Positions 1,615 to 23,802 of a DNA stretch of 64,000 bases are shown one piece after another. Every line of letters begins with the position of its first letter. Positions within the stretch are counted from its first letter, which is position 1. A model generated the notes under the pieces. The model did no database searches, was not told the DNA's origin, and was given only the letters and a program-made list of their open reading frames with translations. The position numbers and the translations under genes are program-made. The DNA lies in the NCBI GenBank assembly GCA_016282685.1, contig JAEELM010000040.1, positions 1,267-65,266 on the forward strand, in the 5' to 3' direction. Source of the DNA: Elusimicrobiaceae bacterium (GTDB lineage Bacteria > Elusimicrobiota > Elusimicrobia > Elusimicrobiales > Elusimicrobiaceae).

Positions 1615-2442
1615 TTATTTTGATAAAGAAAATAATTTCTTTAGACGTTGCTTAAGTGTCAATTTCTGTGGAGGCAGAATTCGGATGAGAACGGTGGATA
1701 TATTGTCTTGTCCATCCCGTTCGTTGGAAAGGCGGACCAATTGTTTGCATAATTTTACCAGGGGTGTAGATTCTCCTTCGCGTAAAATTTTAGCAATTTG
1801 AACATCACTTAATCCTTTGTATAATCCGTCGGAACAGAGTAACAAAGTATCACCTATTTGTACAGGGAATTTCAATAAATCAAATTCAATACTGCGTTTA
1901 ATACCCATAGCTCGTGTCAGAATGTTTTGTACACGTGAGTGGTTGGCTTCTTCTTTGGTTAACAGACCTTGGCGAACATGTTCCATGGCTAAGGAATGGT
2001 CTGTTGTAATTTGTACAAATTTATCATTGCGAAATAAATACAAGCGGGAATCCCCTACATGAACAGTGGTGGCATTTTCCTCATCAAAAATCACACCTGT
2101 TAGTGTAGTTCCCATCATCTTATACATGTCGGATGTTTGGGCCGTAGAATAAATTGCTTCGTTAGCCAAATTAGCAGCTAATAATAATTTGCGGGCCGTA
2201 GGGGTTAATCTAGGTAAAAATGTTTCGGGGACAGAAAGTTGCTTACGATTAATCTTTCGTATCGTTTCAGCTAATACGGAGACGGCGATATTGCTAGCAA
2301 TTTCTCCAGCGCTATGCCCTCCCATACCGTCTGCGACAATGCCTAAACTTAAGTCGGAAGAAATAAGAACATTGTCTTCATTTTTTTCGCGTATTTTTCC
2401 GATATCTGTTACAGCTGCAAATTCGATATCAAAATAGCTCAT
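1615..2442 (-). CDS. PP2C-family Ser/Thr protein phosphatase (Stp1/PrpC-like)
   Basis: TDIGKIREKNED, VADGMGGH, VHVGDSR, LLCSDGL and GQDN motifs; start ATG 2442 overlaps the kinase TGA (ATGA). Confidence 0.93.
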   Translation of the reverse strand: MSYFDIEFAAVTDIGKIREKNEDNVLISSDLSLGIVADGMGGHSAGEIASNIAVSVLAETIRKINRKQLSVPETFLPRLTPTARKLLLAANLANEAIYSTAQTSDMYKMMGTTLTGVIFDEENATTVHVGDSRLYLFRNDKFVQITTDHSLAMEHVRQGLLTKEEANHSRVQNILTRAMGIKRSIEFDLLKFPVQIGDTLLLCSDGLYKGLSDVQIAKILREGESTPLVKLCKQLVRLSNERDGQDNISTVLIRILPPQKLTLKQRLKKLFSLSK

Positions 2443-4784
2443 AAATTCTCTCCCATTACAATGGTTCCTATACAAGAAACTACTGCAAACAGGAACAAGA
2501 CGACTAGTAGCAATGTATATACATCATTGTTAACGGCATTTTCATTGAAATTGTCTATGGGTAAGCCCAACGCGTATAACCACACGTGATAGTTCATTTT
2601 GGCTGCACCACCCTTATAGTAGTCTCTTAAAAATCGCGAGTAGATCGGCAAAATTTCTTCATTAAATGTATCTTCACCGGCTATACGTAGAATTTGGCGT
2701 TCAATATAAACAATAGATTCATCTTGTTTCATGGTACTAACTTCGTTCGATTGATTAATAGCAGAGGAAAAAACTTCTCGTTTAGAATCTATACCTGCTG
2801 TCTTCTCTATTTCTTTATTTTCCTTACTTTCCTTGCTGAGTACAGAATTTTTTACTTGAATTTTTTGGGTCAATGTTTCCAGGGTAACAATTGTGTTTTC
2901 ATGTAACCCCGATATACCATACACCCATAAACAACCCACCCCCATAAACAGCAACATCATGGGCATAAAAGCGCTGTCACGTTGCGTGGGAGAAATTAAG
3001 TAATAGGCAGCCAACAACCCCGCCAATATGGCCAGATACGGTAACATCATAAAAGAATATTCAGAAGAAGGTGCAATAGTCAGGTGCGTAGAGAGATAAG
3101 TCAGCACGAGAACAGCTGCACAAAGAGATACGCCCAATATCCCTTGCCCAATAGAGCGCTTCAAGGTAAAGCACAAGGTAAGTGATCCTAATAAGGCAAT
3201 CAGTAAATAAGCTAAATTATACTCGGGAGAAAAAAGGAATTGCCCCAAGAATTGTGCATGCCAAAATGGGAGGTTCGGTGCAAATAATCCCGCTAGAAAA
3301 GCCGTTACAATAGTGAAAAGTAAGAATATGGTTGAACGACCGTAAGCTTTTGCTGAAGCCAATGTAAAAGATAAAATAACAGCAAGTATCGATAAAGCCA
3401 TCCAAGTAAACTGCCCTGGAGCATAAGGCGTACTCAAGACAGCATTTACTAAATTTTCGACAAAGCTTTCATGAGGAACAACGTGGATAGATGCGGTTTT
3501 GCCCCACATATAAGCAATATATCCCATAGCTACAATGATAACAGCCAAAAGAGAGGGAAGGAGGGATATCTTTAATAGAAAATGAATCGTTTTATCTGCT
3601 ATTTTTTTCGCTTTATATATGTTAGGAGTAATACGAGATTGATAAACATCAATCTTTTTCGCCTGATCTGTACTTTGCATGTTTAAGGGCTTGTTGGCTT
3701 CAACATGGTCTTGTCTTAATTCTTTTTTTGGTTCCGGTGCCATGGCCCCCGGCAAGACAACGGGCAGATCCGATGAGTTAACTACCGCAGGCTTCGAATT
3801 CATTTCTTTTTCCAAAGCACGTTGCTGTTGTAAGACTGTGGTGGTTTGAAACTTTTCTTCTTGTACCAAACGCAACGGTTGTTCTTCTGCTAAGTTTACA
3901 ATGCGCCCGGTGCTGCTTTCTTCCATTTTAAGTTGTTCTTCTGCCCGCATACGTTGAAAAAACAAGTAGGCTTCTTTTGCAGTTTGAAAGCGCGCTTCGG
4001 GGGTTTTAGCCATTAATTTCTGTACGGCACGGGAAAGCCATACGGGTAAATCGTGTCGAATGGCAGCAGGATCGGGGATAGGGTCATTAATGTGCTTTTG
4101 AATGATATCAATGGTATTTTTGCCGCGATATGGGAATTGACCTGTGAGTACATAATACAAGCTGGCGCCAACGGAGTACAAATCTACGCGGGTATCCAAA
4201 TCTCTCCCCAAAGCTTGTTCTGGTGCGATAAAGTAGGCAGTACCAGCTAACTCAGTTGTTTTGGTGGTAGTTTTGTCTTTCTCCATTTTTTTGGCAATGC
4301 CGAAATCTACGATTTTAGCCTGCCCTTCTTTGGTAACCAAAATATTGGAAGGTTTGATATCACGGTGGATAATCCCCTTATTGTGAGCGGCATCCAATCC
4401 TAATAATACTCCTTCAAAGAGTTCTAAAATTTGGCTTAATGGTAAGACTTTTTTCTTTTTAATGATTTGGGAAAGGGTTTCTCCCTCAATAAAGGACATG
4501 ACAATGAAATAATACCCTTGTTCGCGGCCGACGTTGTATACATTTACGATATTGGGATGGTCTATTTCGGCGATGGCTCGAGCTTCAGTGAGAAAAAGTT
4601 CAACGGCTTTTTTGTCATTGGCGAGAGACGGACTTAAGATTTTTACACATACGATACGGTTTAATGCTTTGTGACGCGCTTTATAAACCGCTCCCATTCC
4701 CCCTTCTGCTACCTTCTGCAAAATGACACAACCTGAAATTTCTTTTCCGACTAAAGAAGTGTTATCGCTCATAGTCATTCCCAT
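2439..4784 (-). CDS. Hanks-type Ser/Thr protein kinase with polytopic membrane C-terminus
   Basis: GGMGAVY, VCVK, HRDIKPSN, DFG, APE, DLYSVG motifs, then about 8 hydrophobic segments. Confidence 0.93.
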   Translation of the reverse strand: MGMTMSDNTSLVGKEISGCVILQKVAEGGMGAVYKARHKALNRIVCVKILSPSLANDKKAVELFLTEARAIAEIDHPNIVNVYNVGREQGYYFIVMSFIEGETLSQIIKKKKVLPLSQILELFEGVLLGLDAAHNKGIIHRDIKPSNILVTKEGQAKIVDFGIAKKMEKDKTTTKTTELAGTAYFIAPEQALGRDLDTRVDLYSVGASLYYVLTGQFPYRGKNTIDIIQKHINDPIPDPAAIRHDLPVWLSRAVQKLMAKTPEARFQTAKEAYLFFQRMRAEEQLKMEESSTGRIVNLAEEQPLRLVQEEKFQTTTVLQQQRALEKEMNSKPAVVNSSDLPVVLPGAMAPEPKKELRQDHVEANKPLNMQSTDQAKKIDVYQSRITPNIYKAKKIADKTIHFLLKISLLPSLLAVIIVAMGYIAYMWGKTASIHVVPHESFVENLVNAVLSTPYAPGQFTWMALSILAVILSFTLASAKAYGRSTIFLLFTIVTAFLAGLFAPNLPFWHAQFLGQFLFSPEYNLAYLLIALLGSLTLCFTLKRSIGQGILGVSLCAAVLVLTYLSTHLTIAPSSEYSFMMLPYLAILAGLLAAYYLISPTQRDSAFMPMMLLFMGVGCLWVYGISGLHENTIVTLETLTQKIQVKNSVLSKESKENKEIEKTAGIDSKREVFSSAINQSNEVSTMKQDESIVYIERQILRIAGEDTFNEEILPIYSRFLRDYYKGGAAKMNYHVWLYALGLPIDNFNENAVNNDVYTLLLVVLFLFAVVSCIGTIVMGENL

Positions 4785-4883: not shown

Positions 4884-5345
4884 ATGCTGGAAAGCAGCTT
4901 TACATTACTAAGGGATATAGGAGAAATCATTTTAAAAGAAGATGAAAGTATTCGGTTTTCCATTGATGCTTACCATGGGTATCGGTATGTGTCTGTGCGT
5001 CGCTATTTAAAAACGAATGCTTTTGCCGGGGCCACGCGGGATGGAATTACAATGACCCCTGAAATTGTGCAGGCATTAGCGCCCAAAATACTGTCATTAC
5101 CTGACAACGAAACGGAACTAAAGGAAGGCATTTTTGGAAAATTTGCCAAACGTGCCGGTATTTGTATCGTATCTTCCATTGCTTCCTTTCATGGCACACG
5201 AGGATTGGATTTACGTCAATGGGAAGAAGATAAAGGGTTTACCAAAAAAGGAATATGGATTCCTTTAGATAAATTGCCAGAGGTAAAAAGATTATTCCAA
5301 CTGACGTTGGATGCATTGAACGAACAGCCGGATATTGACTTCTAA
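4884..5345 (+). CDS. Tandem PC4/YdbC-like putative ssDNA-binding protein
   Basis: Two repeats resembling the PC4 signature: YHGYRYVSVRRY...TRDGITM and FHGTRGLDLRQW...TKKGIWI. Confidence 0.65.
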   Translation: MLESSFTLLRDIGEIILKEDESIRFSIDAYHGYRYVSVRRYLKTNAFAGATRDGITMTPEIVQALAPKILSLPDNETELKEGIFGKFAKRAGICIVSSIASFHGTRGLDLRQWEEDKGFTKKGIWIPLDKLPEVKRLFQLTLDALNEQPDIDF

Positions 5346-16803: not shown

Positions 16804-17940
16804 ATGATTCTAAAAAAAGATGTTTACCGTGTGGTGGTAGATTTTTTCCGTACGGAATTATCATCTTATCAATCGGAAGCGTTGGCCGTATTCGAAGAAG
16901 GAAAGGAAGAAGAATTTTTTGAACGCTTGCCCCGGGAAGTTCGTAAAAATGCATTTGATAAAGCGGCCTTATTTTTTGGTTATACTTCCAGGGAGTTCTC
17001 TTCTCTTGCTCTAATGGCAGAGTATGCCTATGCAGCTTATTTGAAAAATCGACGAGTTGTATTTACTACGCAGAATCGTACAGGTTCTACGGTAACATGT
17101 ATTCATACAGAAAATATGTTGGAAGAAGAAGGCTCTGCTTTGGTTCCGTTTTTTAAGGGAGTTAAACGGGTTGTCTCTTTAGTACCAGCCAATCAGTGGT
17201 ATGGATTTACTTTTACAATCACGTTGCCGCATATATTAGGAATAGACGTGGCTGTTTTACCGCCTCTCTCTACCCAATCATGGGAAGATTGGCTGCAGGA
17301 GGGCGATTTGGTGGTTGCTTTCCCCCTCTTTTGGAACTACTGGTTACGGGCCGGAAATAAATTTGCTCCAGGCGTAACAGCTCTATCTTCAACTGCTCCT
17401 TGTAAAGATGAAATTATTAATCACCTGTTTGGGGCAGGCCTTGCTCATTTTGCAGAGGTATATGGTTCCAGTAAAACCGGTTCATTGGCCATTCGTACTC
17501 ATGCCGGGGCGCCTTTTACCGTATTGGATTTTTGGGAAGTTTCTCGTCGGACAGATACGCCTAAATTTAAACGAAAATCCCAACCTGAGTGGTTGATGTT
17601 ACCGGATGAATTAGCCTTTTTATCTGATCGGTCTATTCGTGTTTTACGTCGAAAAGAGGACTGTGTCCGTGTGGCAGGAGTGGAAGTATATCCGCAGGAA
17701 ATAGAGCAAATTTTATCGAAACATCCTGCAGTAAAAAACTGTCGGGTGCGGTTGATGCGACCCGACGAAGGAAAACAATTGAAAGCTTTTGTAGTACTTA
17801 AGGAAGGTTATACGCCTGCTCATGAGAGCATTATACGTACTTACTTATCCCAAAAATTGACAGCTTATGAAATGCCTACCACCTTTACTTTTGGAGCGCA
17901 GTTGCCTGCCGCCGCAGTTGGAAAAGAATCGGATTGGTAA
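16804..17940 (+). CDS. Truncated, degenerate AMP-binding (acyl-CoA ligase-like) protein
   Basis: EVYGSSKTG, RKEDCVRVAGVEVYPQEIEQIL..HPAV, LKAFVV, AYEMP, GK motifs; the P-loop reads TTQNRTG instead of TSGSTG. Confidence 0.75.
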   Translation: MILKKDVYRVVVDFFRTELSSYQSEALAVFEEGKEEEFFERLPREVRKNAFDKAALFFGYTSREFSSLALMAEYAYAAYLKNRRVVFTTQNRTGSTVTCIHTENMLEEEGSALVPFFKGVKRVVSLVPANQWYGFTFTITLPHILGIDVAVLPPLSTQSWEDWLQEGDLVVAFPLFWNYWLRAGNKFAPGVTALSSTAPCKDEIINHLFGAGLAHFAEVYGSSKTGSLAIRTHAGAPFTVLDFWEVSRRTDTPKFKRKSQPEWLMLPDELAFLSDRSIRVLRRKEDCVRVAGVEVYPQEIEQILSKHPAVKNCRVRLMRPDEGKQLKAFVVLKEGYTPAHESIIRTYLSQKLTAYEMPTTFTFGAQLPAAAVGKESDW

Positions 17941-17979: not shown

Positions 17980-18050
17980 AAGGGTCAAAAAGGCCTAGAT
18001 GGAAAATAGGTCTAAAGGCCCTTGCCCTTTTCAAATGAGAGCGTTAAAAT
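17980..18050 (+). promoter_or_regulatory. Tandem quasi-palindromic boxes plus sigma70 promoter (copy A)
   Basis: AAGGGTC-N5-GGCCTAG (17980-17998), ATAGGTC-N4-GGCCCTT (18006-18023), TTGCCC (18022-18027), 17 nt, TAAAAT (18045-18050). Confidence 0.6.
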
Positions 18051-18101
18051 GAGAGTAGAAAGATAGTAATTCCATTATTACTTCGTGGAGTGTGAATAAA
18101 A

Positions 18102-21100
18102 ATGAAAAAAATTCTAGCATTAGTCCTAAGTTTTTCTCTAATTACCGGTAGTATTACGCCAGCATTTGCTCAACGCCCTTTTCGGGGAATGATACCAGGA
18201 ACGTCTCCTCTGATTGAAAAGGGTTTGCAAACGGCCACACAAGGAGAAATTCTCCGTTTAAACTCTCTAACCCCTCAAATATACAGCACTCTATCACGCC
18301 AAATATTATCAACTGATCTTTATTCATTGCGCACAAAATTAAATTCAAATCTTACCATTTTCTCTTCCCGCCCTAAAGCACTTGCTGCACCTGCAATTTT
18401 TGCTTCAAGAGCCATGGAAACAGCAATGGTTGGGCAATTATTTGACAACGCTTTATTTTTAGGGATAAGAGGAGACCGAAGCGATTTACCTGTTTTGAAT
18501 AGATTCCATGACGCATTTAAAGAGACTCCTTTTGCAGATGCATCAGCCCTACTTCTTGGCCGTAGTATGGTAAATTATGGAGCATATGAAGAATTTAATC
18601 AATTTTTATTGCGGGAAAAGCCAACGGGAAATGTATGGGTAGATTTAAAAAATATTGCAAATCAAAATGGTGGGAATGTAACAGCTCCCGTTGTTGAACA
18701 AGGGCGTTTCGGTGTATCTCCCGATCTATCTACCAAGTTACAAGAGTATTTTGGGAAATTTAATTATTTGGGAAGTTTGAACGCGGATTTTTCTAAAGAA
18801 GGTACCGAAGTATTTTTGTTGCTTGGTAGGAATAAATCTCTTGCTCAAAGTTCCACGCAAGCCGAAAAAGCAGGTGCATCTTCTTCCGGTTCTTCCTTGG
18901 CGGAAGAATCAAGCGGACAAGAAGCTATTGAAGAAGGAAAACCGGTATTCCAACCGATTACATTGCCCGTAACACTAAATAAGCCGGTACTTGAAACTCC
19001 AGAAAACACTTCTTCCTATTCAACTCAAGTTGCCAATATTCCCAGCACACAACAGGGAAAAGCAGGAGACACATCTTCGACTCGTGACCGTTTCTTATCA
19101 TGGTTATCACCATCTTCAGATAGAAACGCTGATAAACAAGCCCGGGCTGTATTAAACAAGCCACAACCGTTAGCCACTCATTTGCGTGATATTGTAATAG
19201 GTAATGCATCCAATGCATTGAAAATTCAGGCTCTTCTAAAACTTTATGAACAAGGTTTTTTCAAAGATTTTTTGGATAAACAACCCGCGAATGTTAAAAA
19301 TAATATCAATAATGCCACCGACGAGCAACGAGGCCGTGCACTACTGCGTTTGTATCAAACTAAATATTTGGAAGAAGTACTTAACCAAATTACGGACGTG
19401 GTGGAACAAGGTTCTATTTTAGATGATTTGGAAAGTATTGTAACGCAAGCCGGATGGCAGGAAGAAGTGGAGCGTTCCTATGCAGCGGAAGACGTATTAC
19501 CGTTGAGGGAAGGTAACTTTAGCGGGGTAGTTCCTTCCGTACCGGAGGCAGATAAAGAAATCATTAAAAATGCCGTTCGTTTCCAGGGTTATGCCAAGAA
19601 GAATGCTTCTGTAGGGAAAGTAACGAAAAAAGGTGTTTATTATGAAAATAATATTCCTTTTTACTACCGTAACTCCAAAGGGGAACTTTCTAGCGAACCG
19701 GTTGGAATTTTAACGCAGGTGCCCGCTTCTCTATACGGAAGGATTTTGTCCTTTATGCATTTGGCTTCTCAACCTGGTTTGGTTATTCCGGAAGGTTTTG
19801 TATTAGCAATAGATGAAAAAGGACAATGGAAAATTGTTGCTCCAAAAGGGAATTTGGCTGCCATAGAAGCCAATCCTCAGTCTCGTAAAGTATTGGAACA
19901 AATGAATAAAGAAGGATCTGCACGGGTTCATTTGGATACTAATTACAGTCCAACCGATTTGTTAGCTATAGCCCATTTATTGGAAGTAAATCCTTCTCTT
20001 AACTTTGAATTATCTTTAAATACCCCCCACTCTCTTACTCAATTCTTAACGGCGCATGCCTTGTTTGTTGGAAATGATGCCGGGAATACGTTAACCGGTC
20101 CGTTTAAGGAGTCGTTGAAAAATGCTGCACAAGGGGTTGTAAATATGGTTACCAACCTTTTGGGTGGTGTGGGATATATGACACCGATTGCCGGCGGATA
20201 TGCTATGCCAACGATGGCACGTTGGGGAAACAAGAAAACGACCGAAGTAATTTATGGGGCAGCGGGTTTGGCATTGGCCGGATCTGTGTTTGGCTTAGGA
20301 ATGTTTGGTACAGTAAACCCTGCTACGTTACCTCTGGCTGCATTAGCAATTCCTACAGTTGCATTGGTTTTAGGGGCAAGTTTGGCCAACTCTTTCATTC
20401 CTACTTTCTTAAATTTCTATAAGGATCCGGCTGCTCGTACTGCTGCCAACTTGGATTTTAGTACCAAAAAACAAATGTCTCGTTTGGCCCTTTCCGGGAT
20501 AGTTTCCTTGGCCGCATTGGGCGGACTTAACTGGACGATTGTGGCTCCGATAGGGTTGGGATTGTTAGGAATTTCATACGCTTTGTTTAGAAATACACCT
20601 ATGTACCGTGAAAAAGGTATTGTTACAAAAGCCAAAGATCCCAACGAAGCTGCGTACATTGAAGCCTATAAAGAATTTAGAAAGAATTTACCGGAAATGC
20701 AGGCTATTAAGAGCCGTGTGAAAATGGTATATGCATCCTATGCGGCCAGTTTGATGATTTTAGGTCAAAGTGCCAACGCTGTCTTGCCAGGTGGTTGGGG
20801 ACAAGGTTTTATAACGGCCTGTATGTTGGCTACATTGGGTGTTCGTATGGCTGCTACCAAGTTGGTCAAGAAAAATATTATGACAGATGACCAATTAACC
20901 GGTTTATCGTTGCCTACGTTGGCTCTTTCCGGTGCCGCACTGGCTTTGTTGCCTTTCTCAGGGCCTCTAGCAGCTCTTACAGGGCTTGCAGGCATCTTAC
21001 ACTACATGGCCACGGCCGTTCCTGGACAATTGGATGCTGCCCGTATGCAAAATATTGTAACGGCTAAGATGCAGGAGTTGAAACAAGGCGTTTTGTCTGA

Positions 21101-22214
21101 TGAAACATTGACAGAAGCAGAAAAAGAAGCAGCTATTAAACAGTTAGAAGCAGAGGAAAAAGTATGGTCTGCTCAGGCTTCTAAAGATTATTCTCTATAT
21201 AATTCCCGTGGTTTGTGGGGTATTTTCGTAGCCGCTGCTGCTGCTTTCTTGTTCGAAGACCTTGGGCCACAGTGGACCCATGATATTTTGGAAACGATTT
21301 CAAGTGTATACGGAGAAAGTTCACATGGATTGGCGCTCGATCGCTTGCTGTTTGGCTATTCCGCTGGGGTGGCTGGATTGTTGGCCTTGAAAAATGTGAA
21401 TTTGACACGAGATGGTATCAACTTCTTCCGCAAGAAAAAACCGATTACAGCCGAAAATATTGCAAATCAGAAAATTACTCCCAAAGAGTTTTCCATTAAC
21501 AAAAATAATGCCACTATGATGTTGGGTAGTTTGACTAGCCCAAAATCAGGCGAAATAAAAGAATTGGAAAATCTGTTGATGGGTGTATACGGTATGTATT
21601 CTGAACAAAAATTAACGGATATTTTGATTCGTTTGCAACGAGTCCATAACCGCTTGGTGGCTATTTCTGAAGTGGCAGGGGCAGAAGTAGCACAACAAGC
21701 CTTCCAACGGGAAGAAAAGATGTTAATTAAATTCAGAAAAATTATGGAGTTGCCGCAAAGTGATTTCTCTGTTATGTTGCACCGCGAATTGGATAAATTC
21801 GAAAAAGCTCTATTTACTCCGGAGAAAAAATTGCGTCAAGATCCGTCTTATGTGGAAGAAAACATATATAAGTTGCCAAAAGCTTATAGTTCCTACGAGT
21901 CTGCCCGTCGTGTGTTGGACGAAATGGATCAAATGGCTTATACGTTATCTTCCGGAACGCCGATTGATTATAAGAAATTCGTAGATTATATGTTGCGTGC
22001 GCGCGAAGATCTGTTGACGTATGAAAAAGCTAACACGGCAGATTCGAAGCGTGTGAACGAATTGCGTCGCAAAATGGATAAGCTATGCGTATGGTTAAAT
22101 GAACAAGATTCTCAAAAAGGATTTTTAACCATTTTGCCTTCAGACAGTCCCAATGTAAGAGAAGGAAAACAAGCGATGCGCGATATGCTAGACGCTCCAG
22201 AGGAAGGGAACTAA
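18102..22214 (+). CDS. 1370-aa hypothetical protein: signal peptide, large soluble region, internal MFS-like 12-TM module, helical C-terminus
   Basis: MKKILALVLSFSLITGSITPAFA signal; 12 hydrophobic segments at about aa 645-1095 with an RWGNKK loop after the second segment. Confidence 0.75.
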   Translation: MKKILALVLSFSLITGSITPAFAQRPFRGMIPGTSPLIEKGLQTATQGEILRLNSLTPQIYSTLSRQILSTDLYSLRTKLNSNLTIFSSRPKALAAPAIFASRAMETAMVGQLFDNALFLGIRGDRSDLPVLNRFHDAFKETPFADASALLLGRSMVNYGAYEEFNQFLLREKPTGNVWVDLKNIANQNGGNVTAPVVEQGRFGVSPDLSTKLQEYFGKFNYLGSLNADFSKEGTEVFLLLGRNKSLAQSSTQAEKAGASSSGSSLAEESSGQEAIEEGKPVFQPITLPVTLNKPVLETPENTSSYSTQVANIPSTQQGKAGDTSSTRDRFLSWLSPSSDRNADKQARAVLNKPQPLATHLRDIVIGNASNALKIQALLKLYEQGFFKDFLDKQPANVKNNINNATDEQRGRALLRLYQTKYLEEVLNQITDVVEQGSILDDLESIVTQAGWQEEVERSYAAEDVLPLREGNFSGVVPSVPEADKEIIKNAVRFQGYAKKNASVGKVTKKGVYYENNIPFYYRNSKGELSSEPVGILTQVPASLYGRILSFMHLASQPGLVIPEGFVLAIDEKGQWKIVAPKGNLAAIEANPQSRKVLEQMNKEGSARVHLDTNYSPTDLLAIAHLLEVNPSLNFELSLNTPHSLTQFLTAHALFVGNDAGNTLTGPFKESLKNAAQGVVNMVTNLLGGVGYMTPIAGGYAMPTMARWGNKKTTEVIYGAAGLALAGSVFGLGMFGTVNPATLPLAALAIPTVALVLGASLANSFIPTFLNFYKDPAARTAANLDFSTKKQMSRLALSGIVSLAALGGLNWTIVAPIGLGLLGISYALFRNTPMYREKGIVTKAKDPNEAAYIEAYKEFRKNLPEMQAIKSRVKMVYASYAASLMILGQSANAVLPGGWGQGFITACMLATLGVRMAATKLVKKNIMTDDQLTGLSLPTLALSGAALALLPFSGPLAALTGLAGILHYMATAVPGQLDAARMQNIVTAKMQELKQGVLSDETLTEAEKEAAIKQLEAEEKVWSAQASKDYSLYNSRGLWGIFVAAAAAFLFEDLGPQWTHDILETISSVYGESSHGLALDRLLFGYSAGVAGLLALKNVNLTRDGINFFRKKKPITAENIANQKITPKEFSINKNNATMMLGSLTSPKSGEIKELENLLMGVYGMYSEQKLTDILIRLQRVHNRLVAISEVAGAEVAQQAFQREEKMLIKFRKIMELPQSDFSVMLHRELDKFEKALFTPEKKLRQDPSYVEENIYKLPKAYSSYESARRVLDEMDQMAYTLSSGTPIDYKKFVDYMLRAREDLLTYEKANTADSKRVNELRRKMDKLCVWLNEQDSQKGFLTILPSDSPNVREGKQAMRDMLDAPEEGN

Positions 22215-22234: not shown

Positions 22235-22267
22235 GGGGAAAGAGGGAAGACCTCTTTCCCCTTTTTT
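22235..22267 (+). terminator. Intrinsic terminator
   Basis: GGGGAAAGAGG-gaaga-CCTCTTTCCCC then TTTTTT. Confidence 0.85.
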
Positions 22268-22440
22268 ATAAAAAGTTACGAGCAAAGTTGTTTTTTTGTT
22301 ATAATAAGGGTAACTGCATTTGATGTGGTTTTTACGTAACGAAAGTGCTTTTTCTTCTTTCTATAATATAGAATTTTTAAAAAACAAAAAATGGAAAGAC
22401 GAAAAAACAATTTTGTTTTTGTTTTATAACAGGAGATATT

Positions 22441-23802
22441 ATGTTGGCTAAAATCTTAAATTGGTTTAAACCTTTGCCGGATGCTCAACCGCTAACGGAT
22501 GAACAAGAAATTAAACGTTTGTATCGTTCATGGCGTATTAAGATGTTTTTCTCCATGTATTTTGGGTATGCTCTTTTTTATTTTACCCGTAAAAACTTGG
22601 ATATTATTAAACCAGTGTTGATTAATAACGGGGTGTTTACCATAGAACAATTAGGCACCATCGGGTTTGTGATTTATTTAACGTACGGAATTGGTAAGTT
22701 TATCAGTGGTACGATTGCCGATAAATGTAATATCCGTGCAGTAATGGCTACCGGATTGTGTTCTTCTGCTATTATCAATATTCTATTTGCATTTTTACCC
22801 CAAATTCAACAAGTTTTGCCGCTATCATTAACATTTATGGCGGCTTTTTTATGGGGTTTAAACGGGGTTGCCCAATCTATGGGATTTCCTCCTGTGGCTA
22901 AAGGGTTAGTACACTGGTTTTCACCATCCGAAAGAGCTACCAAATGGACGTTGTGGTCTTCTTCGCATACCTTCGGGGCGTTCTTTGTAGCGCAACTTAT
23001 TTCCTTGTTATTATACTGGAAATGTGGCTGGCAAATGGCTTTTTTGGTACCGGCCGCTATGGGGATTGTCTATAGTATTTTTATGGTGTATTATATGACG
23101 GATATTCCCAAATCAGTGGGCTTGCCTGCTATTGAGATTTATCGTAACGATGTAATGCCTGTCAAACAAGACAAAAAAGATATGACCCAATGGCAAATTA
23201 TCAAAAGATATGTACTGGCAAACCCTTTCCTGTGGGCGTTGGCTATTTCGTACGTATTTATTTATTATGTGCGTTTCGCCACGTTAGACTGGGCAACCAC
23301 ATTCCTCAATCATCGTGGTTTTACAGAGGCTGCTGCCGCTTCCGCCGCTTCTGCCATGCCGTTTTTGGGGATGCCGGGTGGTATCGTGGCCGGTTATTTA
23401 GCCGACAAGTTTTTCAACGGACGTTGCACACAAATGAACATTATTTACTTGATTATTTTGGCTGCTAGCTGTTGGGGATTTTATAAGTTGGCTGCCCCAT
23501 CCGCTTTTTGGACGACAGCTATCTTGGCGGCCTTTATCGGTTTCTTTGTAGATGGTCCTCAAAACTTGGCTGGTGGTGTACAGGCTTCTCGTGTAACGGT
23601 ACAAAAAGCTGCCGCAGCGGCATGTGGATTTACCGGTATGTTTGGTTACTTTGGAGCTATGCTTTCCAGTAAAGGGGCTGCCTATATTAGCACACACTAT
23701 GGTTGGAAAGGTGTATATGTTTCCTGTATTTACGCGTGTATCATTGCTATGATTTGTATTGCAACAACGTGGAAAAAGGAAGCTGCTGCTCCTGCAAAAT
23801 AA
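22441..23802 (+). CDS. OPA-family MFS transporter (GlpT/UhpT/PgtP-like organophosphate:Pi antiporter)
   Basis: GYALFYFTRKN, YGIGKFISG, QSMGFPP, WSSSHTFG, FVDGPQ motifs. Confidence 0.9.
   Translation: MLAKILNWFKPLPDAQPLTDEQEIKRLYRSWRIKMFFSMYFGYALFYFTRKNLDIIKPVLINNGVFTIEQLGTIGFVIYLTYGIGKFISGTIADKCNIRAVMATGLCSSAIINILFAFLPQIQQVLPLSLTFMAAFLWGLNGVAQSMGFPPVAKGLVHWFSPSERATKWTLWSSSHTFGAFFVAQLISLLLYWKCGWQMAFLVPAAMGIVYSIFMVYYMTDIPKSVGLPAIEIYRNDVMPVKQDKKDMTQWQIIKRYVLANPFLWALAISYVFIYYVRFATLDWATTFLNHRGFTEAAAASAASAMPFLGMPGGIVAGYLADKFFNGRCTQMNIIYLIILAASCWGFYKLAAPSAFWTTAILAAFIGFFVDGPQNLAGGVQASRVTVQKAAAAACGFTGMFGYFGAMLSSKGAAYISTHYGWKGVYVSCIYACIIAMICIATTWKKEAAAPAK

Follow-up and report, generated by a model that had tools for sequence, protein, structure and literature searches.

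Giant proteins of Elusimicrobiaceae and relatives with an embedded, sequence-diverged MFS-fold domain: a candidate carrier or transceptor family

No known family of secondary carriers is larger than the major facilitator superfamily (MFS), which consists almost entirely of stand-alone proteins of 12 or 14 helices with both ends in the cytoplasm. Some MFS proteins are sensors; E. coli UhpC and yeast Snf3/Rgt2 pass on a ligand-dependent conformation via cytoplasmic parts, and the C-terminal tails of Snf3/Rgt2 measure 200-340 amino acids (aa). ABC importers of the GlnPQ/OpuA type combine a signal sequence, fused substrate-binding domains and a membrane domain in one chain; their membrane domains start from outside, while the MFS fold starts from inside. 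Here we analyse a gene in a 64,000-nucleotide stretch of DNA from an Elusimicrobiaceae bacterium (assembly GCA_016282685.1, contig JAEELM010000040.1, positions 1,267 to 65,266 of the forward strand; the whole stretch is referred to below as the window). The gene encodes a 1370-aa protein in which a 12-helix membrane module is embedded between large soluble parts. An earlier, sequence-only reading of the window had described it as a giant signal-peptide protein with an MFS-like module of 6+6 helices, and had asked how an exported N-terminal part could be reconciled with the MFS topology. Structure modelling now assigns the module to the MFS fold, and comparison with more than 60 homologs bears on how the chain may be laid out across the membrane.

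The limits of the module were found at aa 645-1097. The sequence-only reading had placed it at about nucleotides 20040-21395 (aa 647-1098), in agreement with these limits, and the loops that it had quoted, ARWGNKKT (aa 706-713) and KKNIMTDD (aa 923-930), its long central loop and its helical insert between transmembrane helices (TM) 10 and 11 are all present. In a hydropathy scan the hydrophobic helices bunch at aa 716-1095, and there is no 19-residue segment with a mean Kyte-Doolittle hydropathy (KD) above 1.3 between aa 23 and 715. AlphaFold2 was first run on aa 340-1370 with 15 close homologs. The model was poor, with a confidence score (pLDDT) of 25-35 in the N-half of the module, yet even so most of its best matches in the PDB were MFS proteins. 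Distant relatives were then collected by an exhaustive phmmer search, and 13 diverse modules were aligned for a second model, covering aa 626-1110, which reached a pLDDT of 84.6 and a pTM of 0.83. Foldseek comparison of this model with the PDB returned 201 matches at E<=1e-3; the best 50 of these 201 were all MFS proteins, with TM-scores of 0.50-0.63, a probability of 1.00 and near-full-length alignments. NupG, sialin, GLUT3, SLC15A4, EfpA, ferroportin, SV2A, XylE and FucP are among the matches. On the strength of this model, aa 645-1097 is a genuine 12-helix MFS-fold domain (6+6) that has diverged beyond sequence detection.

Pfam and NCBIfam scans of the 1370-aa protein gave no family at E<=1, a profile search of the homolog alignment against PDB sequences gave chance matches only (E of 1 or more), and hhalign comparisons of the module profile with UhpC, with a 458-aa MFS protein and with P0015, the positional counterpart of the giant protein in locus L010, gave nothing (probability <1%). 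Alignment of the N-half with the C-half of the module by hhalign revealed no internal repeat, a result that is usual for MFS proteins and hence uninformative. The module is thus an MFS domain at the level of the fold and lies outside every described MFS family at the level of sequence.

The module alignment nevertheless holds pseudo-symmetric motifs at the places typical of MFS carriers. The basic loop M-A-R-W-G-N-K-K-T, with the invariant Gly709, follows helix 2 and is matched after helix 8 by the basic loop K-K-N-x-x-T-D-D-Q-L-T-G; helices 4 and 10 are followed by Y-K-D-P-x-x-R-T and A-V-P-G-Q-L-D-x-x-R-x-Q-N, respectively. Motif A in its canonical form (GxLaDrxGrkxxl), with the Asp-Arg pair, is missing, though the basic loops are rightly placed. 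None of 52 modules deviates at R872, Y877, Y880 or R915, and 92% of them keep R1081; several Gly and Pro positions at the ends of helices are conserved as well. Conserved positions make up 17% of the short loops on the cytoplasmic side versus 5% of the outer loops. The insert between TM10 and TM11 is modelled as two long helices with pLDDT >90 and carries the conserved residues R981, N984, E1019, Y1030 and N1034. Helix 1 is modelled as two short helices of 13 and 16 residues with a break at a conserved G-x-D-x-G, and helices 1 and 2 are the least hydrophobic of the module (mean KD 0.80 and 0.62; dG(19), the Hessa insertion energy summed over 19 residues, about 7). The mean dG(19) of the 12 helices is 4.85 kcal/mol and none lies below 2.36; for two housekeeping MFS proteins encoded in the same genome the means are 3.13 and 2.04, and their helices include values of -2.95 to 0.7. 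The difference between the module and these proteins gave p=0.009 in a Mann-Whitney test, on a crude scale and with three proteins in all. The helices of the module are rich in Ala, Gly and Leu, and P0015 follows the same trend of low hydrophobicity. UhpC itself has two helices with a dG near 6.9, marginally hydrophobic helices being normal in MFS proteins.

The distribution of Lys and Arg (K/R) over the loops was used to assess the orientation of the module. Averaged over the 52 modules, loops 2-3, 4-5, 6-7, 8-9 and 10-11 carry 2.0, 3.3, 13.3, 2.0 and 10.0 K/R, respectively, and the flank after TM12 carries 4.6, while loops 3-4, 5-6, 7-8, 9-10 and 11-12 carry 0.5, 0.1, 0.5, 0.0 and 0.8. Loop 11-12 is moreover acidic (2.7 D/E), and loop 6-7, of 40 aa in the window protein, has a family mean of 68 aa. 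The positive-inside pattern and the long 6-7 loop of MFS carriers are thus both found. Because K/R are concentrated in the loops after even-numbered helices and in the flank after TM12, the pattern fits the canonical MFS orientation from helix 3 on, in which the central loop, the TM10-11 insert and the C-terminal tail would be cytoplasmic. An inverted topology, one of the possibilities raised by the sequence-only reading, runs counter to these loop counts.

The module was encountered only inside giant proteins and never as a stand-alone carrier of 400-500 aa in the phmmer search. It forms part of a conserved core of about 1030 aa, which comprises a helical domain (helN), a beta-rich domain, the MFS module and two tail domains, and which is common to about 50 cluster representatives, all of them giant (1200-3374 aa). 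In the window protein the soluble flanks of the module amount to about 620 aa after the signal-like N-terminal segment and to a mostly helical tail of 273 aa. Hidden Markov models (HMMs) built for the four soluble domains (helN, beta, tail1 and tail2) match nearly all members, always flanking the module. The helN model detects its domain in almost every member whose module identity exceeds about 35%, and the most distant members still keep the beta domain and one tail domain. The taxonomically labelled loci come from Elusimicrobiaceae, Elusimicrobium, Avelusimicrobium or Elusimicrobiales of gut and rumen, with one exception. This exception, L004 (CAVKWQ010000001.1), is labelled as a Muribaculaceae bacterium and is syntenic over 20 kb with Elusimicrobiaceae loci, its neighbouring genes being 70-90% identical to those of the window; the contig is probably mis-binned. 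Throughout, the giant gene is syntenic yet faster-evolving, with 36-62% identity compared with 70-98% for its neighbours. Pfam and NCBIfam scans of seven large relatives recognised only C-terminal HAD and Trypsin_2 domains, namely a HAD-family hydrolase at aa 2531-2713 of P0047 (E=1e-28) and a trypsin-like peptidase at aa 3100-3229 of P0055 (E=3e-6).

The N-terminal segment of the window protein has the layout of a Sec signal, as the sequence-only reading had noted; its role as an export signal or as an anchor is a separate matter, taken up below. A positive n-region (MKK) is followed by an h-region (ILALVLSFSLI), within the usual 7-15 residues, and by a c-region (TGSITPAFA, before a Gln) with small residues at -3 and -1; cleavage here is only predicted. 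Nearly all members of the family open with the same 23-24 residues, made up of x-K, 20 uncharged residues and the ending P-[SA]-x-A before Gln, the uncharged stretch being fixed at 20 residues in 43 of the 45 members. Ser residues at i, i+4, i+11 and i+15 form a one-sided stripe. In 224 kb, comprising the window and ten related loci, the motif is confined to the N-termini of the giant genes.

Behind this segment the proteins differ greatly, the head between N-terminus and core ranging from about 320 aa in the window protein to about 1500 aa. Heads homologous to the fast-evolving 'N-domain' of the window protein occur in small and intermediate members, in P0015 and the similar protein P0016, and in two stand-alone proteins of about 370 aa from locus L002 (L002:5682-6794 and L002:6930-8036). 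Each of the latter has an ordinary Sec-type signal peptide, a Lys-rich stretch and the head-homologous domain, and their genes occupy the slot that pyruvate kinase takes in other loci. On sequence grounds the head is an independent module, and the family as a whole reads as a mosaic in which the same head is joined to different cores and the same core to different heads. The syntenic ortholog from locus L003, P0020 (1983 aa), has the core of the window protein and a different, much longer head.

The resulting chain poses a topological paradox, as the first helix of an MFS domain starts in the cytoplasm, yet the window protein has a signal-like N-terminus and no further hydrophobic helix in aa 24-640. 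Large orthologs offer a way out. In sixteen large members and in P0020 a single hydrophobic helix lies between head and core; a Y-(Q/E)-N-W-(Q/K) motif precedes it, and it consists of about 22 hydrophobic residues with one conserved Asp among them. Its upstream flank has a net charge of 0 to +2 and its downstream flank of +4 to +7, the latter with 4-7 K/R (e.g. RVLKLARAG), as in a stop-transfer helix. Parity counts of extra helices at KD >1.4 gave no consistent picture; they became informative once the dG filter was tightened and the flanks were inspected. These features are consistent with the order signal (in to out), ectodomain, helix (out to in), cytoplasmic helN and beta domain, and MFS module; given the stop-transfer helix, the soluble core domains of the large orthologs would therefore be cytoplasmic, as would both ends of the MFS domain. 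A cytoplasmic location of the C-terminal end of the 12-helix domain is supported by the K/R count after TM12. Thus the extra transmembrane helix that the sequence-only reading had considered is found in the large orthologs, complete with its basic C-terminal flank, but not in the window protein, whose subfamily lacks it. HMM mapping of the window N-domain onto the parts of the large heads before and after the helix gave no matches, and the heads are not homologous.

In the window's subfamily the N-terminal segment may itself resolve the paradox. The small type carries a mean net charge of +2.9 over the 18 residues and of +4.4 over the 30 residues that follow the segment, and the 30-residue value differs from that of the large type (+1.05) with p ~1e-5 in non-redundant sets. 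In E. coli the early mature region of exported proteins is neutral or acidic, and a basic one hampers export; measured by this E. coli rule, the window's subfamily departs from the pattern of exported proteins. The positive-inside rule favours an uncleaved N-out/C-in anchor here, because the basic flank would be retained in the cytoplasm. The constant 20-residue length of the uncharged segment and its one-sided Ser stripe also speak for such an anchor.

On balance we propose that the window protein is an integral inner-membrane MFS carrier or transceptor in canonical orientation, with cytoplasmic soluble core domains and an N-terminal anchor, and we give this overall reading a probability of about 0.5. 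The MFS domain would sit in the cytoplasmic membrane in the normal orientation, with the central loop, the TM10-11 insert and the 273-aa tail facing the cytoplasm, and helN, the beta domain and the tail domains would lie on the same face. The N-terminal part would be a swappable, fast-evolving head. In the large orthologs this head would be an exported ectodomain tied to the core by the one stop-transfer helix; in the window's subfamily the N-terminal segment would stay in the membrane as a helix 0 (N-out/C-in), so that the 620 aa behind it would not be exported. Conserved intramembrane Arg and Tyr residues lend indirect support to transport, and the domain would act as an alternating-access carrier or as a transceptor. 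A small ligand would bind in the cavity with the invariant Arg915, Tyr877 and Tyr880 and with Arg1081, and the conservation of two intramembrane Arg residues suggests that it is anionic. By analogy with UhpC and Snf3/Rgt2, the state of the cavity may be read or controlled by the large cytoplasmic domains; such a coupling is suggested because these large conserved domains would lie on the same face as the most conserved loops.

Several observations weigh against this proposal. No recognisable signalling domain was found in the 1370-aa protein, the MFS similarity escaped every sequence method applied, and loop 1-2 holds a nearly invariant Lys (mean 1.9 K/R), which is odd for an outer loop. Most concern the N-terminus and speak for a cleaved signal, by which the periplasm would receive aa 24-640 (the head, perhaps along with helN and the beta domain) and the carrier would be an MFS derivative with an N-out start. 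One of helices 1 and 2 would then cross from out to in and the other would be interfacial or re-entrant, leaving 11 crossings and a cytoplasmic C-tail. The segment looks like a cleavable Sec signal: 43 of the 45 members keep the putative signal peptidase I site (Pro at -4, a small residue at both -3 and -1), the h-region is short, and the Lys of the n-region is invariant. The distant members P0033, P0034 and P0051 carry generic-looking signal peptides in place of the segment, and the large subfamily is headed by the same N-terminal consensus, which must there be a true export signal. The signal peptides of the stand-alone versions suggest that the N-domain works outside the cytoplasm, and the basic flank of the window protein itself (Arg at +2 and +5) amounts to only +2 net over 30 residues, equal to the charge of its n-region. 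The lack of another hydrophobic helix in aa 24-640, the weak hydrophobicity of helices 1 and 2, the broken model of helix 1 and the Lys of loop 1-2 would all suit such an arrangement. It is, however, at odds with the model, which matches a complete 12-helix MFS domain whose canonical helix 1 needs a cytoplasmic N-terminal end, with the stop-transfer helix of the large orthologs, which puts homologous helN and beta domains in the cytoplasm, and with the strongly basic early 'mature' region of the window's subfamily. Topology is, besides, rarely inverted within a protein family. We consider a cleaved signal with a periplasmic head unlikely, if a serious competitor, and place the N-terminal anchor ahead of it, though not by much.

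Export of the whole protein, which the sequence-only reading had also entertained, is improbable. The chain would be translocated by Sec and would insert from the outside, into its own membrane from the periplasmic side or into an outer, host, protist or competitor membrane, with all its large soluble domains left behind on the entry side. Such a protein would be a secreted MFS-like pore, carrier or effector; its exchangeable heads would serve for targeting, and the C-terminal enzyme domains of some relatives would be cargo. The signal-like N-terminus would agree with this, as would the placing of all long and charged segments on one side, with short trans loops nearly free of K/R, the faster evolution of the giant gene relative to its neighbours, and the HAD hydrolase and trypsin-like peptidase at the C-termini of some relatives. 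The reduced hydrophobicity of the helices compared with the two MFS proteins of the same genome is one weak indication in the same direction, but it comes from a crude measure on three proteins, and marginal helices are no rarity in MFS carriers. The short 'trans' loops are acidic, which would suit the periplasm better than a negative-inside cytosol, the classical stop-transfer helix of the large orthologs implies ordinary integration into the inner membrane, and neither secretion-system genes nor a signal for such a system were seen in the 64-kb window, of which about a third was annotated.

The odd architecture and the absence of a family-model match are the only grounds for regarding the open reading frame as an assembly or annotation artefact, or as a decaying pseudogene that fuses unrelated genes. 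The same uninterrupted layout is present in the more than 60 homologs, which come from independent assemblies, among them 15 full-length homologs of 37-95% identity, and likewise in the cluster representatives. The core is strongly conserved (mean column identity 56-66%), and contigs from independent gut metagenomes and metatranscriptomes showed no frameshift across the domain junctions, which are free of indels in both DNA and RNA contigs. The gene is transcribed, as sheep-gut metatranscriptome contigs of 92-99% identity tile it from 18077 to 22192. One of these contigs has an in-frame 3-nt deletion at 18414, in the variable head region, which fits relaxed or diversifying evolution of the head. 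With the gene also bearing its own promoter-like site and terminator, an artefact is effectively refuted, and the fusion artefact that the sequence-only reading had named as its own possible undoing did not materialise; nor did the other it had named, a module for which no MFS fold is predicted.

Because a promoter-like site lies upstream and a terminator-like hairpin downstream (Table 1), the gene is most simply viewed as a monocistronic unit, apart from the UhpC/GlpT-family MFS gene that follows. Where the sequence-only reading had mentioned a special promoter, only an ordinary sigma-70-like match was seen. Sigma-70-like matches are no commoner in the region than in shuffled sequence, and it is only the position of the one listed that is suggestive; a metatranscriptome contig begins at 18077, downstream of it. 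The canonical MFS gene next door had been pointed out in the sequence-only reading and is indeed there, the link being one of synteny only. A functional link between the two genes was considered and rejected, given the terminator between them and the absence of the UhpC-like gene from L007 and L009, where pyruvate kinase comes immediately after the giant gene.

In five related genomes an aryl-polyene-like lipid/polyketide cluster lies directly upstream of the giant gene and in the same direction. It was found in genomes of the P0007 clade and in L010, and comprises genes for a LolA-like protein, a 757-aa protein with no Pfam match, an ApeI-like dehydratase, a 4HBT thioesterase, a GT2 glycosyltransferase, a lipid-A-type acyltransferase, an acyl carrier protein, two ketosynthases and, as its last gene, the 378-aa AMP-ligase. 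The window retains only this AMP-ligase (51% identity), preceded by lipopolysaccharide-core, AsmA and other genes, and we treat the proximity of the cluster to the giant gene as synteny only. Elsewhere in the window a PP2C phosphatase gene (1615-2475, minus strand) overlaps the end of a gene for a 781-aa Ser/Thr protein kinase (2439-4784, minus strand), and a gene for a 153-aa protein with a PC4/p15-like domain (4884-5345, plus strand) adjoins this pair.

Table 1. Features of the giant gene, its product and its surroundings; positions are those of the window unless a locus (L) or protein (P) is named
Feature	Position	Strand	Residues	Basis or remark
AMP-binding/4-coumarate-CoA-ligase-like gene, upstream neighbour	16804..17940	+	378 aa	Family scans; synteny only
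Sigma-70-like promoter match TTGCCC-17-TAAAAT	18022..18050	+		About 50 nt upstream of ATG
Ribosome-binding site GGAG	18087..18090	+		11 nt before ATG; direct reading of sequence
Coding sequence of the giant protein	18102..22214	+	1370 aa	ATG start, single intact open reading frame, stop codon included
Family-specific signal-like segment MKKILALVLSFSLITGSITPAFA, followed by Q	18102..18170	+	1-23	n/h/c layout of a Sec signal
Basic stretch and 'N-domain' head, fast-evolving	18171..18833	+	24-244	Variable in alignment of homologs
Low-complexity linker rich in S/T/Q/E/P	18834..19133	+	245-344	Sequence and alignment
Helical domain (helN), first part of core	19134..19511	+	345-470	pLDDT 75-90
Beta-rich domain, motif NIPFYYRNSKGxLSSxPVG, directly before helix 1	19512..20021	+	471-640	Modelled strands
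MFS N-bundle, helices 1-6	20034..20591	+	645-830	Model, Foldseek, loop charges, conservation
Basic central loop, 40 aa	20592..20711	+	831-870	8 K/R here, family mean 13
MFS C-bundle, helices 7-12	20712..21392	+	871-1097	Model, Foldseek, loop charges, conservation
Helical insert between helices 10 and 11, 61 aa	21027..21209	+	976-1036	Model and conservation
Two helical tail domains	21399..22211	+	1100-1370 (1100-1240, 1241-1370)	pLDDT ~80, family-wide HMM matches
Intrinsic-terminator-like hairpin, 11-bp stem (7 GC pairs) and T-run	22235..22271	+		Between the giant gene and its downstream neighbour
Canonical UhpC/GlpT-family MFS gene, downstream neighbour	22441..23802	+		PF07690 E=4e-36; NF008661 E=3e-93
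P0015 gene	L010:10001-13864			Positional counterpart of window 18102-22214
Stop-transfer helix of large orthologs			P0027 aa 533-569; P0047 aa 578-611; P0020 aa 482-500; 14 others	No window coordinates
Aryl-polyene-like cluster	L010:193-9695; L004:2-6529; L005:1-7119; L006:2-7204; L008:7-7188

The lineage uses this sequence-unrecognisable MFS fold only as the membrane centre of proteins of 1200-3374 aa, and these giants combine it with a conserved set of soluble domains, with a signal at the N-terminus that hardly varies and with heads that can be exchanged; in many of them a thirteenth helix would join an exported ectodomain to the core. If the soluble domains do read or control the carrier, the family would represent a bacterial MFS 'transceptor' larger in scale than any yet described; if, instead, the N-terminal 620 aa are exported with no return helix, it would represent an MFS topology without precedent. 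The family offers a defined target, syntenic and in single copy, in a gut phylum that has received little study, and it illustrates how much fold-level homology current family libraries miss. With function predicted only, this importance is potential.

The literature searched holds no description of the family and no described counterpart of the architecture of the whole protein. By fold, the closest systems are the MFS carriers (Pfam clan CL0015; NupG 7dla, sialin 8u3f/9ayb, GLUT3 4zw9, SLC15A4, EfpA 8ufd and ferroportin). The module shares with them the 12 helices, arranged as two six-helix bundles, and the long, basic loop in the middle, together with short basic loops after helices 2 and 8 and conserved P...R motifs after helices 4 and 10. 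It differs from them in the conserved soluble domains of about 300 aa before and about 270 aa after it, in the 61-aa insert between TM10 and TM11, in the signal-like N-terminus of the protein and in the absence of motif A. The layout of GlnPQ/OpuA is the one that a cleaved signal would assume for the window protein; unlike those importers, however, the head showed no similarity to substrate-binding proteins in Pfam/NCBIfam scans or the PDB profile search.

P0015 and P0016 (1287 aa, L010) resemble the window family in their N-terminal motif and head, with 46.5% identity over about 370 aa to P0007, and in the order head, about 300 aa, 12-helix domain and helical tail. Their genomic slot is also the same, bounded upstream by the gene for the 378-aa AMP-ligase and downstream by those for the UhpC-like protein and pyruvate kinase. 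In contrast to the window protein, their membrane domain matches Pfam MFS_1 (aa 685-1077, E=7e-13), and their middle and tail have no detectable similarity to it, so that the core has either been swapped or has diverged beyond recognition. They are independent support for an MFS domain at this position.

Acinetobacter AmpG1 has an Ig-like periplasmic domain inserted in the outer loop between TM11 and TM12 (PMC13507758). As in the window protein, a sizeable non-membrane domain adds a function to an MFS core; the insertion in AmpG1, however, creates no topological conflict and leaves the protein recognisable as AmpG. It is only a loose precedent. In the window protein, unlike AmpG1, the extra mass of about 900 aa is N- and C-terminal and lies behind a signal-like segment. 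The resemblance to UhpC and Snf3/Rgt2 is a functional analogy only: the tails of Snf3/Rgt2 are comparable in size to the 273-aa tail, whereas the latter has no sequence or domain similarity to them, and no partner kinase or regulator was identified beside the gene. The family is undescribed; the known proteins that come nearest to it are MFS carriers to which a single domain has been added, as in AmpG1, and long-tailed sensors of the MFS type.

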